In this document: positions 23,927-62,482 of the stretch, piece by piece | Position numbering within the stretch: the stretch's first letter is position 1 | Layout of the letters: the number at the start of each line of letters is the position of its first letter | Source of the DNA: an uncultured Chloroflexia bacterium | Lineage (GTDB): Bacteria; Chloroflexota; Limnocylindria; Limnocylindrales; CSP1-4 | Length of the DNA: 64,000 nt | NCBI GenBank assembly: GCA_963813335.1 | Contig: CAWEYL010000003.1 | Coordinates: 128,001 to 192,000, forward strand | Direction: 5' to 3' | The notes under the pieces: generated by a model | What the model saw: the letters and a program-made list of their open reading frames with translations, nothing else | The model's database searches: none | What the model was told of the DNA's origin: nothing | Made by a program: the position numbers and the translations under genes

Positions 23927-24685
23927 TCAGGCGAGGCCGCGGGCGGCCCAGGCCCTGGCCGGGATCACGAACGGCCCGGCTGGCAGGCGCTCGCGGAGCC
24001 GCTCCCGAAGCTGGGCTTGGGCGTCCGAGGAGAGCCCGGCGGTGTAGGCGCCGGCCGGGCCGGCGCCGCCGGCGAACGGCGCCCACCAAGCCTCGAAGTC
24101 GGGGTGCTCGAGGTCCGCGGCGAAAGCGGTCTCGGCGACCTCGCGGAGCCCGGCCGACCGGAACAGCCGCCCGAGATCGCCCTCGGTCACGCCGGCGAGC
24201 TCGGATTCATCGTCCACATCCGGGTCAAGTTCTCGGGCGACCTCCCAGAAGAGGCCCAACGGTCCCGTCCCGCCGCCGTGGTCCCAGACGCATGCGACGA
24301 CCGCGCCGCCAGGGCGGGTGACGCGGCGCATCTCCGCCAAGCCAAGGATCGGGTCGGCCATGAAGTGCACCACCAGCTGGGCGAGGGCGGCGTCGAACGT
24401 GTCGTCCTCGAACGGGAGGTCCTCCGCGGATGCCTGGCGGACGTCGACGCCGGGGTAGCGCGCCCGGACGGCCTCGACGAAGGAGACCGACGGGTCGACC
24501 GCGGCGACCGACCCCGGGCCGAGCCGCCCGACCAGTTCGCGGGTGAGCGCGCCCGGGCCACAGCCGACATCGATCGCGCGCTGGGGCGGCGCGATCCCCG
24601 CCAGGTCGGCGAGCTGCGCCGACAGCAGCATGGAGTACCGTCCCATGAACCGGTCGTAGGCGTCCGCGGCGACATCGAAGCTCAT
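23927..24685 (-). CDS. Class I SAM-dependent methyltransferase
   Basis: YDRFMGRYS, DVGCGPGALT and AEDLPFED. Confidence 0.9.
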   Translation of the reverse strand: MSFDVAADAYDRFMGRYSMLLSAQLADLAGIAPPQRAIDVGCGPGALTRELVGRLGPGSVAAVDPSVSFVEAVRARYPGVDVRQASAEDLPFEDDTFDAALAQLVVHFMADPILGLAEMRRVTRPGGAVVACVWDHGGGTGPLGLFWEVARELDPDVDDESELAGVTEGDLGRLFRSAGLREVAETAFAADLEHPDFEAWWAPFAGGAGPAGAYTAGLSSDAQAQLRERLRERLPAGPFVIPARAWAARGLA

Positions 24686-24742
24686 GGGGTCACGGTACCG
24701 CGCGATAAGCCATCGATGGGCGCCGATCCGGAACATGGCGCG

Positions 24743-25526
24743 GTGGATGTGGTGCGGTTCGGGCTTGGGATCCGGGCGCTGCGGCGCAAGCGAGCCTGGA
24801 CGCAGAAGCGGCTGGCTGCTGAAGCGTGCGTCTCGAGGTCCGTCATCGTGCGGATCGAACGCGGTCGCGCCGATCGCGTCGCGGTCCACACCCTGGTTCG
24901 GGTCGCTGCCGCTCTCGGGTCATCGATCTCGGTGAGGCTCCTCTGGCAGGGTGAGGGTCTCGACCGCCTGCTCGACGCGTCGCATGCCGACATCGTCGAG
25001 CGCGTGGTCCGCCTGCTGTCGAGTGACGGCTGGGAGGTGACGACCGAGGCGTCCTTCAACGTCGACGGCGAGCGTGGGTCGATCGATGTGCTCGCGTTCC
25101 ACGCTGCGACGGGCGCGCTGCTCGTCATCGAGGTCAAGTCGGTCGTGCCGGACATCCAGGCGACGCTCCACGGCCTGGATCGCAAGTTCCGCGTCGCGCG
25201 GCGGGTTGCCGCCCAGCGGGGCTGGGAGGTCCGAACGGTATCGCGCGTCCTCGTCCTGCCCGACGATCGGACCTCGCGGCGACGCGTCCAGGCACACCGA
25301 GGCGACGTTCGACGCGGTCGTGCCGGCCAGAACCGTCGAGATCAAGCGGTGGCTTCGGGCGCCGGCCGATGCCGTCGCGGGGATCCTGTTCCTGTCAGAT
25401 GACCTTCACCCGGTCACTCGTCACCGCGTCAGCTCACCACGGGTCCGGCCCGTGGCAAGCCCACGCACGGATCGTGGACGGGAAGAGGTCGGAATGAGTC
25501 AGATGGATCCTCAAGCGGTCATCTGA
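24743..25526 (+). CDS. XRE-type HTH + PD-(D/E)XK nuclease-fold protein (apparent +1 frameshift near 25298)
   Basis: IRALRRKRAWTQKRLAAEACVSRSVIVRIERG, then E..F..GERGSIDVLA..LLVIEVKS. The C-terminus (EATFDAVVP..GILFLSD) continues in another frame. Confidence 0.75.
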
Positions 25527-25567
25527 CCGCGTGCCGGTGACCAACGACCGCCTGAAGGACATGCGCC
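25394..25567. repeat. 174-bp element, copy 1 (imperfect 31-bp inverted arms plus an internal CAGATG/CATCTG hairpin)
   Basis: Arms GTCAGATGACCTTCACCCGGTCACTCGTCAC and GTGACCAACGACCGCCTGAAGGACATGCGCC; matches 36399-36572. Confidence 0.8.
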
Positions 25568-25681
25568 GGAAACCCGGGCGTGAGGGAGTCCGCAGGCGGG
25601 TCTGCGGGACCTGGGCGGAAGCGGGGCAGCGGGGAGTCCGGGCCGCGGCCGGAACCCGCGGCCGGAACCCGCGCGAATCGA

Positions 25682-36278: not shown

Positions 36279-36398
36279 GTGCCAAGTGTGGCGGGTGCGA
36301 TGTGTTGCCGTCGCCGGTTCGTCGATTCGTCGACTCGTCGAGTCCAAGGTGCGCGAGTGGCAGGCAATGCGACTGTCCTGTGAGACCTCGCCGTTTCG

Positions 36399-36572
36399 GT
36401 CAGATGACCCTCAGGTGGTCACTCGTCACCGAACGAACGGCGGAGTCCTGTCGATCGAACCTGCCTCGTGCGTGGACCCCGGCCGGACTGGCCACGGGAC
36501 CTGCCAGATGCGCGCCTGGTGATTCATCTGACAGGAATGTCGTGACCAACGACCGCCTGACGAGCATCTGAC
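36399..36572. repeat. 174-bp element, copy 2 (gene-less)
   Basis: Arms GTCAGATGACCCTCAGGTGGTCACTCGTCAC and GTGACCAACGACCGCCTGACGAGCATCTGAC; same length and hairpin offset as copy 1. Confidence 0.8.
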
Positions 36573-36748
36573 AGGAACCAGTCCTGCGTCGCAGGCTGCT
36601 GGTCGGCGCAGCCGATCCCTGCCCCTCGCGGTCCCTGCTGCTCCCGGTCCGGCCGGGGACCTGTGGTACCATCCGCCTTCGCGTCCGGCGCTCACCCCGT
36701 GCCGCGCGTCACGTCGACCACCACCATCACACCAGAGGTCAGCCCACC

Positions 36749-37408
36749 TTGGCCAAGACGCCCCGCACCTGGACGGGCGCTCGTACGCCGTCAGGACTCA
36801 AGCGAGTCCGTCAGGCCGCGAGCCGCCGTGAGGTCCTCCAGCCGCGCCGCAGTGCCGCGAAGACGTACGTCGCGAAGGCCCTCATGGCCGCATCCGCGCC
36901 GGCCGACGAGGGACTCGATGCGAACTTCGCCCTCCTCGAGGCGCTGAGCGCGCTCGATCGGGCGGCCAAGGCTGGTGCCATCCACCCGAACGCCGCCGCT
37001 CGCCGCAAGTCGCGCCTGACCCGCAAGGTCAACGCCGCGGTCGGTGGCGCGCACGTCCAGGTCGGTGGCCGCGTCGTCAAGACGACCGGCAAGGCCGCGG
37101 CCGCCAAGGCTGCCAAGGCCCGCATCGCGGCCGGCAAGGCCGACAAGGCCAAGGGCGCCCAGACCGCCGCCGGCAAGGCTCGCGCCGCGCTGAGCAAGAC
37201 GGCCCGCGCCGAGGCCGCCGCCGCCAAGGCCGCCGCCGCCGCAGCCGCGGAGACCACCACGGCCAGGGCCGCGACGAAGGCCCCGGCCAAGGCACCGGCG
37301 AAGAAGTCGACGGCGAAGGCGACCGCCGCCCCGAAGAAGACGGCGACGAAGGCCCCCACCGCGACCGCCAAGGCCGCCCCAAAGGCGAAGAAGGCCGACG
37401 CCAAGTAA
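36749..37408 (+). CDS. rpsT: 30S ribosomal protein bS20 with a long Ala/Lys-rich C-terminal extension
   Basis: KRVRQ..RSAAKTYV..LDRAAKAGAIHPNAAARRKSRL, then about 120 aa of A/K-rich tail. Confidence 0.9.
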   Translation: MAKTPRTWTGARTPSGLKRVRQAASRREVLQPRRSAAKTYVAKALMAASAPADEGLDANFALLEALSALDRAAKAGAIHPNAAARRKSRLTRKVNAAVGGAHVQVGGRVVKTTGKAAAAKAAKARIAAGKADKAKGAQTAAGKARAALSKTARAEAAAAKAAAAAAAETTTARAATKAPAKAPAKKSTAKATAAPKKTATKAPTATAKAAPKAKKADAK

Positions 37409-44215: not shown

Positions 44216-47080
44216 TCAGCCGGCCCGGCCGACGCCGGGCGGCCCGGGAGCGGGCGGCGGCGGGCCGGCGAACGCGGCCAAACGGGCGGCCACACGACCC
44301 GACAGGCGGCGCCGGAGGAGCCGGCGGCGGGCCAGCGTGACGAGCAGCGAGGCCAGCGTGAGCGCGGCGAGCGTGCCCAGTCCGGCGACACCCGTCAGGT
44401 CGTGCCCCGGGAATGGGCCGAAGCCTGCGGTCGCCGGAAGGGTGGCGCTCGTCCCGGGGCCGGCGGCGATCACCGCCGGGTCGCCGCTCGGCGTCGCCAG
44501 CGCCGCCGCAGCGGTCGGGTCGCCCGCGAGCACGATCCCGGCGGGATCGTCGGCGACGACCGTCCAGCCGCGCTCCGTCGAATCGACCCGGCCGACCACG
44601 TTCACCACATCGTCCGGCTCGATCAGCGGCAGGAGCTCGGCGGCGGCGTCGTGCAGGACCACCGGACCCGTCGCGGTCCCGTCGTCGAGCAAGAAGCCGT
44701 CCGGGAGCAGGCCGCTGACGATGCCGCCCACGCGCACGGTCGTGCCGTCATGGCCGGCCAGGTCCACGAGGTCGGCGTCGGGCACGGCCGGCGCCGCACC
44801 GGTCGGCGCCGCCGCCGACCCGGGACCGGCGGTCGGACCGGAGACGCCGGCATCGCCGCTCGAGCCCGTTCCGGACGTTGCGCCGCCGGTGCCCGTTCCG
44901 GGTGCGGCTGTGGCCGCGTCCACGCGCATGTCCCCCCGCCCGCGTGGAAGGATCGCGTAGCGCCGGTCCTTGGCGGTCGGGTACGGGCGGCGGACGATGC
45001 CGACGACGGTGGCCAGGTGGCCCTCCAGGACCGACGCCACCGGGATGCCGGCACCGGCCTGGCCGAGCACGACCACCCGTTCCTTGCCGACGAGCAGCTC
45101 CGCGCGCCATCGGTCGCCGAGCTTGTTCACCGTGTCGATCCGCCCGCGGACCGTGACGAGGCGCCACTCCTGGGCGAGCCCGGGCGAGCGGTACAGCAGC
45201 AGTGGTGCCGGGACCGTGGCCGTGCCGAGTCGCTCGATGGCGGTGGCCGCCAGCCTCGGTGCGCCGTACGACGTGCCGACGCTGCCGTCGACGCGGACGC
45301 GAGTGCCGACCGCCGGTGCCGTGGCATCCGAGGGCGCGCGGACTTCGATCGCGCCCGACGTGTCCTGCACCACGAACAGCTTCCCGGTCCCGTCGAGCAG
45401 CGTGGCGGGCGCGGTCACGACCGCCACGATGGCGACCGATCGGCCGCTGGTCCGCTTCGCCGCGGCGATCGAGATCGGCCGGATCGGGGAGGCGCTGGCG
45501 GACGGCCCGGCGGTCGGCGTCGGACGAGCGGTGGGCCTCGGCGTGGGCGTGGCACCCGGCGTGACCACGACGACGTCAGCGACGTCCCGAAGGCAGATCC
45601 GGTAGCCGTCCAGCGCCCCGCTGCGCGTCGACCGCTGGCCGCCGATCCCCGTGATCCGGTACGTGCCGCCGACGGCGAAGGTCGAGGCCGCGATCCCGCT
45701 CGAGGAATCGGCGAGGACCTTGATGGCCGGGCCTTCGCTCGGCTGCAGCGTGACCGTGACGTCGCCGCTCGACGACGTGGTCGGGCGAGCGTCGACGCGG
45801 CCGGTCGCGACGAGGATCCGTCCTTCGGTGGACTCGTCGAGGCCCGTCGGCCCGAGGGCCGTCGGTTCCGGAGGCGCCGCGGTCCCGGTCTCCACGATGC
45901 CGCCCGCCACCGGCCGGACCTCGAGCTGGCCGTATGGCGCCGCCAGCGGTCCCGTGACCTGGAGCGTCGTGCCGCGCGTCGGCTCGGTCGTGCCTGCTGG
46001 GAGCCGGACGGCGAGACCGCCGGTCGGATCGGCGATCGCGACGAGCGCCGGCGTCCCGAGCCGGCCGGCCTCGACCGTGATGGTCCCCGTGACGGTCACG
46101 ATCGTTCCGATCGGCAGGAGGCGAGCGGCGGCGAGATCCGTCGTCGCGGCCGGCGTGGGCTGCGGTGTCGGAGTCGGTGTCGGCTCGGGAGTCGGGGTGG
46201 GCACGGGAGTCGGGGTCGGGGTCGGCGTGGGCGCAGGCGTCGGCGTCGGGGTCGGCGTCGGCGTCGGCGTCGGGGTGGGCACGGGAGTCGGGGTCGGGGT
46301 CGGCGTCGGGACGGGGGTCGGGATCGGGGTGGGCGTCGGCGTCGGGACGGGGGTCGGAGTGGGCACAGGGGTCGGGGTGGGCACAGGGGTCGGGGTGGGC
46401 GTCGGGGTGGGCGTGGGTACGGGCGCAACCTCCGGGACCGGCGGCGCCGAGAGACCCTGCGGCGACGGCGCGGCCTGGACGAACCAGTCCACCGAGTCGT
46501 CGTTCGTGTCCCAGCCGTTCCCCAGTGCGCCGCCGGGTGCGCGCTCCAGGCTCGAGCCGGCCGCGGGCGCCGGTGCGGGCGAGCCCTCGACCACGTCGTT
46601 CGCCGCGTCCCCCCAGCCGACGGCGTCGACCACGGCGCCCCCGACGACGCGCAGCGCGATCGTCCCGCCGGTCGCGGCGAACCCGCCGGAATACGTCAGG
46701 TCCGCGGCCGCCGCGAACGCGCCCGCGGTATTCGCGAGCAGGATCCGCTTCCCGGGATCGAGGATCGTGGAGACCGTCCACGTCCCCTTTCGCGTCACGG
46801 TCGAGCCCGAGGACGTCGCGTAGACCACCTCGAGGCCGGCCAAGTCGACCGCACCGGTCCCCTGGTTGGCTACCTCGACGAACTCGTCGGATGCCGAAGC
46901 GCCACCCGTCTGGATCTCGCTGACGACCAGGGTCGACGTCGGCCAGGCCACCGATGCCGCCAGGGCGATCGGCACGCCCGCCGCACCGCCAGGGACCAGC
47001 CCCGAGGCGGCGATCAGGGCGACCACGAGCACGAGATGTCCCACCCGGACGCGAACCATGACGACCTCCCGGCGGGACAC
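44216..47080 (-). CDS. Surface protein: lamin-tail domain, Pro/Thr linker, repeated OB-fold-like domains and a C-terminal anchor
   Basis: [18 protein letters not shown] (LTD), (PT)n, repeated VTGTIT..D.TGG..V units, then a C-terminal TM with an Arg-rich tail. Confidence 0.8.
46150..46422 (-). repeat. Coding (Pro-Thr)n low-complexity tandem repeat
   Basis: Repeated GTCGGG/GTGGGC hexamers. Confidence 0.9.
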
Positions 47081-62406: not shown

Positions 62407-62482
62407 GGGGATGTAGCTCAGCTGGAAGAGCACCGCGTTCGCATCGCGGGGGTCAGGGGTTCGAGTCCCCTCATCTCCACCA
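62407..62482 (+). tRNA. tRNA-Ala (CGC)
   Basis: Cloverleaf, anticodon CGC, G3:U70 pair, GGTTCGA T-loop and encoded CCA. Confidence 0.97.

Follow-up and report, generated by a model that had tools for sequence, protein, structure and literature searches.

A Limnocylindrales helix-turn-helix nuclease gene and the inverted-repeat DNA element that overlaps its 3' end: a candidate cognate pair

The window studied here is a 64,000-nucleotide stretch of DNA (positions 128,001 to 192,000 of contig CAWEYL010000003.1, assembly GCA_963813335.1) from an uncultured Chloroflexia bacterium of the order Limnocylindrales. It holds a gene for a protein that combines an XRE-type helix-turn-helix (HTH) domain with a putative nuclease domain of the PD-(D/E)XK fold. 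The last ~15 codons of this gene, its tail and its stop codon sit within an inverted-repeat element, and a second copy of the element stands elsewhere in the window without the gene (Table 1). We lean, with some reserve, towards regarding the protein and the DNA repeat as a cognate pair, organised like the REPIN/RAYT systems but on a different class of enzyme. The main evidence is the family-wide association of gene and element, the covariation of the element's arms, the behaviour of its gene-free copies, and several signs that the element is a site in duplex DNA.

Association of the element with the nuclease gene

Genome contigs were searched with an alignment of 29 proteins, and the best 80 of 220 relatives, which are 49–78% identical to the query and come from 77 metagenome-assembled genomes of Limnocylindrales/Chloroflexota, were taken as loci L001–L080, giving 1.34 Mb of DNA around the gene. 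A covariance model, R1, built from an alignment of 47 elements (A4), places the element at the 3' end of the gene in 71 of the 80 loci; among the other nine, the gene is cut by a contig end in three and the match to R1 is weak or absent in six. The association does not depend on the model alone: a search of the 300 nt downstream for inverted partners gave a better one for the coding arm than for any of ten control 39-mers drawn from the same gene in 61 of 76 loci. Across the family the layout consists of a left arm of 39 nt (TTyCTGyCAGATG ... CTCGTCAC), a spacer that holds CCAnGCnTGG, an inner inverted repeat of 33–34 nt, a linker of 5 nt and a right arm of 38 nt, within a total length of 140–205 bp. 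The two arms differ in a conserved manner (..CTCGTCA.. in the left and ..GTTGGTCA.. in the right, read in the same sense), and gene-free copies keep both this asymmetry and the central motif.

The arms vary together. Over 39 arm pairs in 47 elements, 75.7% of cells were standard-paired (a value somewhat inflated by how A4 was assembled, see below), compared with 34–42% when the partner was slid by one to three columns. Changes on both sides occurred in 29 of the 39 pairs, and 192 cells carried double changes, a count that none of 500 shuffles reached (87.8 ± 7.3). As an example, GGTCAC.../...GTGACC in the window corresponds to a GAGCGC.../...GCGCTC-like pair in L007 and L008, where the change in the arm codons accompanies a Val-Thr to Ser-Ala change in the protein. 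The inner inverted repeat was paired in 67.1% of cells across the family, compared with 29–42% after sliding. Covariation had been proposed as a check in a first-pass annotation of this DNA, and the check came out in favour of the element.

In the window, the element measures 184–190 bp rather than the 174 bp given in that annotation, which had correctly placed the left arm in the codons for FLSD..VTRH and the stop codon within an internal hairpin, here the second half of the inner repeat. The inverted arm that it reported downstream is present, with an ungapped match to the left arm at 27 of 39 positions in place of 22 of 31. Copies 1 and 2 align without indels; arms, central motif and inner repeat are kept, including a 19/19 identical stretch in the right arm, and the spacers differ like random sequence. 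In addition, the rightmost part of copy 2 matches the left end of copy 1 as its reverse complement (78% over 37 nt). The 15-mer TTCCTGTCAGATGAC, at up to three mismatches, occurs four times in the window, always inside the two copies (expected 0.75; a count of four was reached in 0 of 100 shuffles), and a 13-mer alone was not significant, with at least two matches in 86 of 100 shuffles. Copy 2 sits between a hydrophobic minus-strand open reading frame and rpsT (Pfam Ribosomal_S20p, E 9.3e-17), ~170 nt upstream of the rpsT start. In agreement with the earlier description of a second copy without the gene, tblastn found no homologue of the HTH-nuclease gene near it, and the genes that separate the two copies are housekeeping genes (dnaK, grpE, hrcA and lepA).

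It had been left open that only these two copies might exist, the second being a decayed gene end. Association and covariation hold across loci, and R1 finds 26 gene-free elements in the 1.34 Mb, with one more cut by a locus end. Thirteen lie within ~300 nt upstream of the gene, in 12 of the 80 loci and in either orientation; four directly follow the gene-linked copy (L041, L073, L078 and L069, the last with a decayed paralogue); one stands beside a C-terminal gene remnant (L074); and about nine are 1–9 kb away in intergenic DNA. The arms of gene-free copies tend to follow their own genome: among 22 testable copies, the gene-linked copy of the same genome ranks first for 13 and second for two, and of six others, four have shifted coordinates and one belongs to a different arm type. 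Paralogues of the gene carry different arm types.

Comparison of orthologous spacers identified both filled and empty sites. The spacer upstream of rpsT is filled in the window, in L040 and in L001 (a divergent arm type; R1 25.3 bits, E 2.1e-7, filters off) and empty, at ~60–70 nt, in L006, L014, L029 and L076. Similarly, the spacer between a methyltransferase gene and dnaK is ~40 nt long and empty in L005, and ~280 nt long with an element in L011. Two copies in L051, separated by 9 kb, are ~99% identical over ~320 nt, and their outer flanks are unrelated. The two window copies and two copies in L011 have matching arms and diverged spacers, so at least some copies are old and have had their arms kept alike. 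A look-alike upstream of rpsT in L019, picked out by eye, scored only 8.7 bits with R1 and was not counted.

The gene itself keeps its place. A dnaK homologue is found in the flank of 47 of the 80 loci, downstream and on the opposite strand in all but L028, and 30 loci have, upstream, a UbiA-like gene of at least 68% identity. Identity between the HTH proteins tracks identity between the adjacent DnaK proteins (Spearman rho 0.70, n = 32). Conserved synteny and this tracking together indicate that the gene is vertically inherited and, as judged from these comparisons, not mobile. The suggestion of an autonomous/non-autonomous pair is therefore borne out in one half, since gene-free copies exist and are present or absent between relatives, and fails in the other, since the gene is syntenic, tracks dnaK and is not autonomous. 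Three assemblies have two loci each, and weaker paralogues may escape the best 80 of 220. In L028 (1300–4784), grpE and dnaK stand upstream of the HTH gene and share its strand, an element lies between, and the HTH gene is therefore inverted relative to the usual convergent arrangement. Two contigs labelled Verrucomicrobiia (L066 and L070) carry a typical Limnocylindrales locus, with UbiA-like gene, HTH-nuclease gene and element, and the label is probably a binning error.

Tandem arrays were observed beside many elements. G+C-rich arrays with a period of 9–45 nt and at least two copies lie no more than 120 nt from an element end in 55 of 98 elements; such arrays were found in 14.3% of random 180-nt segments and in 15.6% of crudely defined non-coding segments. 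Several start within the last ~10 nt of the right arm (for example 21 nt x 8.7 in L004), and arrays also occur at L004 9577–9702 and 10808–10990, at L051 9647–9711 and 18637–18729, and at many other loci. Repeated cutting and repair could have left these arrays behind, as could slippage of replication at a palindrome.

Fold of the protein and nature of its candidate site

The family to which the protein belongs comprises 2564 proteins at E <= 0.001 among 3817 candidates and, at E <= 1e-30, 667 clusters at 50% identity; members with a named organism are from Chloroflexota or Candidatus Limnocylindrales. Pfam HTH_3 (PF01381) matches the window protein above cut-off (E 3.1e-11) and was found in 29 of 29 family members. 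The second half of the window protein matches the MmcB-like PD-(D/E)XK family at E 0.024, below the Pfam cut-off, and across the family PD-(D/E)XK matches are likewise sub-threshold only (MmcB-like in 22 of 29, YhcG_C in 4 of 29). The AlphaFold model (mean predicted local distance difference test score, pLDDT, 81) has an N-terminal HTH, an alpha/beta core with strands at 107–140 and 174–182 and pLDDT above 90, and a disordered tail from about residue 231. When the core was compared with known structures using Foldseek, it matched PD-(D/E)XK nucleases, namely the R2 retrotransposon endonuclease domain (RLE; E 3.2e-5), SduA, Card1/Can2, XisH and NucS, over a range of E 3.2e-5 to 1.5e-3 and at probabilities of 0.97–1.00. 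All 71 translated loci share E111, D124, E139 and K141 as putative catalytic residues, of which D124, E139 and K141 fit the D...E-x-K type characteristic of the fold.

Other searches added to the HTH half of the protein. Sequence-profile matches in the PDB covered the HTH domain only (C.AhdI, SinR and HipB); NCBIfam gave only sub-threshold HTH models for the window protein; PADLOC gave HTH-domain matches and weak PDC-S02 matches, with no membership of a defence system; and matches in the Protein Atlas were to unnamed HTH clusters only, most commonly from Chloroflexota. Pfam and Foldseek detected HTH and PD-(D/E)XK domains and no transposase-type domain, in line with the first-pass remark that the protein is not of a recognised transposase type. 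A regular expression for the C-terminal motif, run on 150 cluster representatives, caught the core pattern in only 19, too few for use.

The protein is probably dimeric, as judged from structure prediction. A homodimer model scored 0.64 (best of three controls 0.00) and passed a mark that 20 of 30 solved homodimers attained, compared with 1 of 23 monomers; runs agreed in at least 76% of contacts, the partner had pLDDT of at least 73, and the modelled interface comprises the HTH and the linker. Given that solved XRE dimers exist, this pass may reflect likeness to them.

Several features of the element favour a protein-bound site in double-stranded DNA rather than an RNA. Among arm cells, 1266 were Watson-Crick, 121 were G.T and 150 were A.C. 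An RNA helix is expected to tolerate G.U far more than A.C, and the near-equal numbers therefore favour a double-stranded DNA site. Length variation is confined to one spacer, which measures 46–48 nt in 15 of the 47 elements, 58–59 nt in 5, 67–69 nt in 24 and 79 nt in 1; total-length classes of 140 and 205 nt extend this ladder, whose step is ~10.6 nt. Because such a step equals one turn of B-DNA, it favours a protein-bound duplex, and because the steps are not multiples of three, coding offers no explanation for them. The codons of the coding arm are nearly fixed across 69 loci: serine is TCA in 38 of 39 cases (6.7% of serine codons elsewhere in these genes), aspartate is GAT in 34 of 35 (39% elsewhere) and arginine is CGT in 50 of 66 (9.4% elsewhere). 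The element is thus constrained at the DNA level even within coding sequence.

A further link joins the HTH to the arms. Of the 140 protein columns that vary, the one whose corrected mutual information with the non-coding right arm is highest is residue 41, with which the HTH recognition helix starts; its partner is arm column 16, the final G in CAGATG (normalised mutual information 0.88). The residue is R in 48, Q in 17 and another amino acid in 6 of 71 loci, and Q41 proteins go with CCATCCAGTC-type arms. In a tree built without those columns, residue 41 changes nine times and the arm base eight times. That the residue tracks the base is suggestive only. Taken together, the parity of G.T and A.C, the spacer steps, the fixed synonymous codons and the link between residue 41 and base 16 argue for duplex DNA as the likely form of the site.

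In L007, a gene-free element (2431–2599) has CCACCTACCC-type arms, like those of Q41 partners, yet the local gene encodes R41 and has CAGACG-type arms. This suggests that a second protein/repeat pair exists elsewhere in the same genome.

The pairing weighed against known systems and other explanations

In the mechanism that we propose, a dimer of the HTH would read the arms on double-stranded DNA, which would require arms and inner sites to share one face of the helix, and the nuclease domain would cut within the element or next to it. Other arms would then serve as templates for repair or copying, which would spread the element and keep all arms of a genome alike. Since such homogenisation would include the inverted arms within one element, arm covariation could arise without selection for base pairing, and the overlap with the coding end would tie the gene to one master copy. 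Mobilisation and cleavage by the HTH-nuclease are what we infer here; the option raised in the first-pass annotation, an array of binding or cleavage sites, fits the evidence. A bolder version, which we regard as possible though doubtful, would make this a new class of self-propagating DNA repeat without transposase chemistry, in which a dimeric nuclease cuts at the element, homology-directed repair spreads it and homogenises its arms, the gene stays linked through a C-terminus encoded in the left arm, and the tandem arrays are scars of cutting and repair.

The closest organisational parallel is the REPIN/RAYT partnership, to which the first-pass annotation had already pointed. In one account (bioRxiv 10.1101/2021.07.10.451892), it is described as a population of repeats that is inherited vertically and maintained by an enzyme that does not jump, and is presented as an exception; the RAYT gene is usually single copy, has a fixed extragenic place, is inherited vertically and is flanked by cognate palindromic doublets, and REPINs are non-autonomous copies in extragenic space with a lineage-specific repeat type. 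As far as that description goes, the two organisations match: the HTH-nuclease gene keeps its place and appears vertically inherited, inverted-arm doublets flank it on the 3' side and, in 12 of 80 loci, upstream, gene-free copies are intergenic, and the repeat type is specific to the lineage. Among the best 80 of 220 relatives, most assemblies have one locus. The association, the arm covariation and the flanking and dispersed gene-free copies all fit the analogy. However, the enzyme here combines XRE-HTH and PD-(D/E)XK domains and is not an HUH/Y1 (catalytic-tyrosine) transposase related to IS200 TnpA, so the system in the window is no member of the REPIN/RAYT family. Its element is also longer than the ~100 bp of the latter, contains an inner repeat and a central palindrome, has one coding arm and, in one copy, overlaps the gene's coding end. 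RAYTs act on single-stranded hairpins, whereas the signals described above point to recognition of duplex DNA with helical phasing. Finally, REPIN/RAYT systems are defined by tens to hundreds of repeats per genome that are duplicated by the enzyme; the comparison made here covers the DNA around the gene.

Nucleases with the same core fold include the R2 endonuclease domain, XisH and Shedu SduA, and the window protein's family conserves residues of the D..ExK type, although identity to these nucleases is low (10–18%) and TM-scores are modest (0.26–0.31 on the query). Tn7 TnsA is another PD-(D/E)XK nuclease that acts in a mobile-DNA context. To our knowledge, neither it nor the R2 domain, XisH or SduA is fused to an XRE-HTH or tied to a family of palindromic repeats. 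Searches of the open-access literature, at the level of titles and abstracts, brought up no account that ties an HTH-PD-(D/E)XK gene to palindromic repeats, and none that describes such repeats in Chloroflexota or Limnocylindria.

If the pairing is real, vertically inherited repeat populations with a non-jumping enzyme would have evolved more than once, independently of HUH chemistry, and a little-studied soil phylum would host a second REPIN/RAYT-like partnership, this one with a hydrolytic PD-(D/E)XK nuclease. It would also show clearly how an overlapping DNA element can hold the coding end of a gene at the nucleotide level, and would give a testable code of protein-DNA specificity between residue 41 and arm base 16. 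The nuclease itself, being compact, sequence-specific in its DNA binding and directed to long composite sites, could have practical interest. For annotation, part at least of what looks like a 'conserved C-terminal motif' in the family is a DNA signal.

A number of observations weigh against this interpretation. An arm match of at least 24 of 39 had been the condition for entry into A4, and the paired percentage is somewhat inflated by this choice. The changes in residue 41 and base 16 amount to four independent pairs on supported branches, with ~3.6 in the same direction and none in the opposite one (sign test p 0.125). The nuclease gene in the window itself carries a frameshift. The window pair and the L011 pair are not of recent origin and could be explained just as well by selection for a role in the host, regulation for instance, and no target-site duplication is visible at copy 2 or at the L011 insertion, where the flanks are too diverged to align. 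Most gene-free copies in the 1.34 Mb lie near the gene, and the repeat population may be small and local. Moreover, a hydrolytic PD-(D/E)XK nuclease cannot join strands unaided, and spread would have to draw on host repair.

The most serious rival, and one compatible with the pairing model, is an operator role. In its pure form, which we consider unlikely, the protein would be a transcription factor, the elements would be large operators serving autoregulation and a small regulon that includes rpsT, and the nuclease-like domain would serve for sensing or oligomerisation, with no mobilisation. XRE-HTH proteins are typically repressors, and the PDB and PADLOC matches of this one include HipB, SinR, C-proteins and CapH. 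Twelve of 80 loci have an element immediately upstream of the gene for the protein itself, and rpsT has one upstream in the three filled cases; helically phased sites and a predicted dimer are classic features of a repressor loop, and arms that stay matched as spacers diverge fit as well. Against this, the near-universal site is the 3' end inside the gene's own coding sequence, which is no promoter position, and the four catalytic-type residues are invariant. The regulatory explanation also fits poorly with sites that are present or absent between close relatives, with different arm types at the same spot, with tandem element copies (L007, L041 and L078), with the near-identical L051 pair in unrelated flanks, and with tandem arrays that abut element ends.

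We find it improbable that the elements are an ordinary family of MITEs (miniature inverted-repeat transposable elements) moved by an unrelated transposase, with one ancient insertion fixed in the gene's 3' end and no role for the protein. Known palindromic repeats of bacteria (Correia, ERIC, BIME/RIP with its IHF site, and the Rickettsia palindromic elements) are short, have terminal inverted repeats and no protein of their own, are mostly intergenic and are present or absent between relatives; BIME/RIP and Correia elements have a central protein-binding site, and Rickettsia palindromic elements can be translated within host proteins. The terminal inverted repeats, size, intergenic location and presence/absence polymorphism of the elements described here agree with such a family, and the link between protein and element is known from sequence rather than biochemistry. 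Yet one copy is a fixed, family-wide part of a single nuclease gene, with its left arm held at the nucleotide level inside coding sequence, and the other copies follow the arm sequence of the gene-linked one (ranked first for 13 of 22). The gene-free copies gather around the gene, 13 of the 26 being directly upstream of it and 4 directly downstream of the gene-linked copy; paralogues have different arm types, and one residue of the recognition helix varies with an arm base. Where flanks had diverged, no target-site duplication was seen, and no DDE parent was seen, with no genome-wide search for a parent element having been made.

Still less probable is a structured RNA, either a 3' untranslated region element or a guide-like RNA over the gene end that works with the nuclease in the style of omega RNA and tnpB. 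As in IS200/IS605 TnpB (or IscB), a conserved non-coding element starts inside the 3' end of a nuclease gene, the arms are long and co-varying, and sequences folded singly exceed their shuffles somewhat in stability (z -1.9 to -3.3 on both strands). These folds, however, are about as good on one strand as on the other and differ in structure between copies 1 and 2, and RNAalifold keeps only 10 pairs. In the whole window, Rfam at its gathering threshold gave only a tRNA at 62407, and at E up to 10 only two chance-level matches near copy 1 and none at copy 2. The fold of the protein is not RuvC-like, its gene shows no sign of mobility, gene-free copies lie in either orientation to their neighbours, and the G.T and A.C counts and the quantised spacer depart from an RNA-type signature. 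The first-pass comparison with TnpB and its overlapping 3' RNA, or with structured RNA more generally, is accordingly not one that we retain.

It is very improbable that the gene-free copies, copy 2 included, are the last remnants of decayed gene duplicates: a decaying paralogue in L069 has its own element, the C-terminal remnant in L074 is accompanied by one, and copy 2 reads FRSDD..VTRHR in one frame, but most gene-free copies have neither a trace of the gene nor room for one, the debris predicted beside most of them was not found, tandem and upstream copies occur in both orientations, the non-coding right arm, central site and exact spacing are conserved, and filled and empty orthologous sites exist. 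The MITE, RNA and remnant explanations all fit less well than the cognate pair or the operator role. An inversion switch, with the arms as recombination sites that swap the protein tail, was rejected on account of the shared layout of gene-free copies, a central motif that is a quasi-palindrome rather than an inverted segment, and the lack of an adjacent recombinase gene.

Features of the window and minor observations

Window coordinates of the gene, of both element copies and of the adjoining tandem arrays are given in Table 1. The window has a G+C content of 72%.

Table 1. Coordinates in the window of the nuclease gene, the two element copies and the neighbouring tandem arrays
Feature	Position	Strand	Basis or remark
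XRE-HTH + PD-(D/E)XK-fold nuclease gene (fold predicted)	24743..25526	+	Pfam, tblastn with P0001, alignment A2, AlphaFold/Foldseek
Element copy 1, overlaps gene end	25386..25575	+	R1 148.4 bits, E 3.3e-37; seed sequence of R1; alignment A4
Left arm, copy 1	25389..25427	+	TTCCTGTCAGATGACC..GGTCACTCGTCAC; encodes F-L-S-D-D-L-H-P-V-T-R-H-R
Central quasi-palindrome, copy 1	25461..25470		CCACGCACGG; family consensus CCAnGCnTGG
Inner inverted repeat, copy 1	25498..25527		GTCAGATG..CATCTGAC; second half holds stop TGA 25524–25526
Right arm, copy 1, inverted non-coding partner	25534..25572	-	27/39 match to left arm (ungapped)
Tandem array, 13 nt x 2.4	25643..25673		CCGCGGCCGGAAC; ~70 nt past right arm of copy 1
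Element copy 2, gene-free	36391..36580	+	R1 133.8 bits; seed sequence of R1
Left arm, copy 2	36394..36432		
Central motif, copy 2	36465..36475		
Inner repeat, copy 2	36504..36535		
Right arm, copy 2	36539..36577		
Tandem array, 16 nt x 2.4	36612..36650		~30 nt past right arm of copy 2

The reading frame of the nuclease gene starts at a GTG (24743), with an alternative ATG start at 24716, and is broken by a +1 shift (one extra base) near 25301–25303. An intact homologue of 269 amino acids (P0001; 95% identical to the window protein) aligned by tblastn in two pieces, 24716–25303 and 25302–25523, at 94% and 93% identity, and the comparison places the extra base as a G within CGAGGCG (25295–25307). 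The shift is either a real pseudogene mutation or a homopolymer-type assembly error. The frame-corrected protein ends in ...GILFLSDDLHPVTRHRV...MSQMDPQAVI. A scan for promoters and terminators around copy 1 returned no sites.

A class I methyltransferase gene changes its position relative to the HTH gene. It lies upstream in the window (23927–24697, minus strand), in L001 and in L002, and downstream in L005 (10921–11670) and L011 (10879–11628). The gene in L011 is bracketed by two elements with nearly identical arms, an arrangement that hints at rearrangements mediated by the elements.

Near copy 2, the ribosomal protein S20 encoded by rpsT (36749–37408) is 219 amino acids long; the Pfam S20 domain covers residues 11–95, and a C-terminal extension of ~120 residues is rich in alanine and lysine. 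Outside the element and ~80 nt before the rpsT start, a block CTGTGrTACCATCCGCCTTCGCG (36660–36700) is strongly conserved upstream of rpsT in L001, L006, L014, L017, L018, L019, L029, L032, L040 and L076, and is probably the rpsT promoter or leader. Further along the window, at 46104–46463, a dense G-rich array was found with periods of 12 and 18 nt (TCGGGGTCGGCG-like; 16 overlapping copies).

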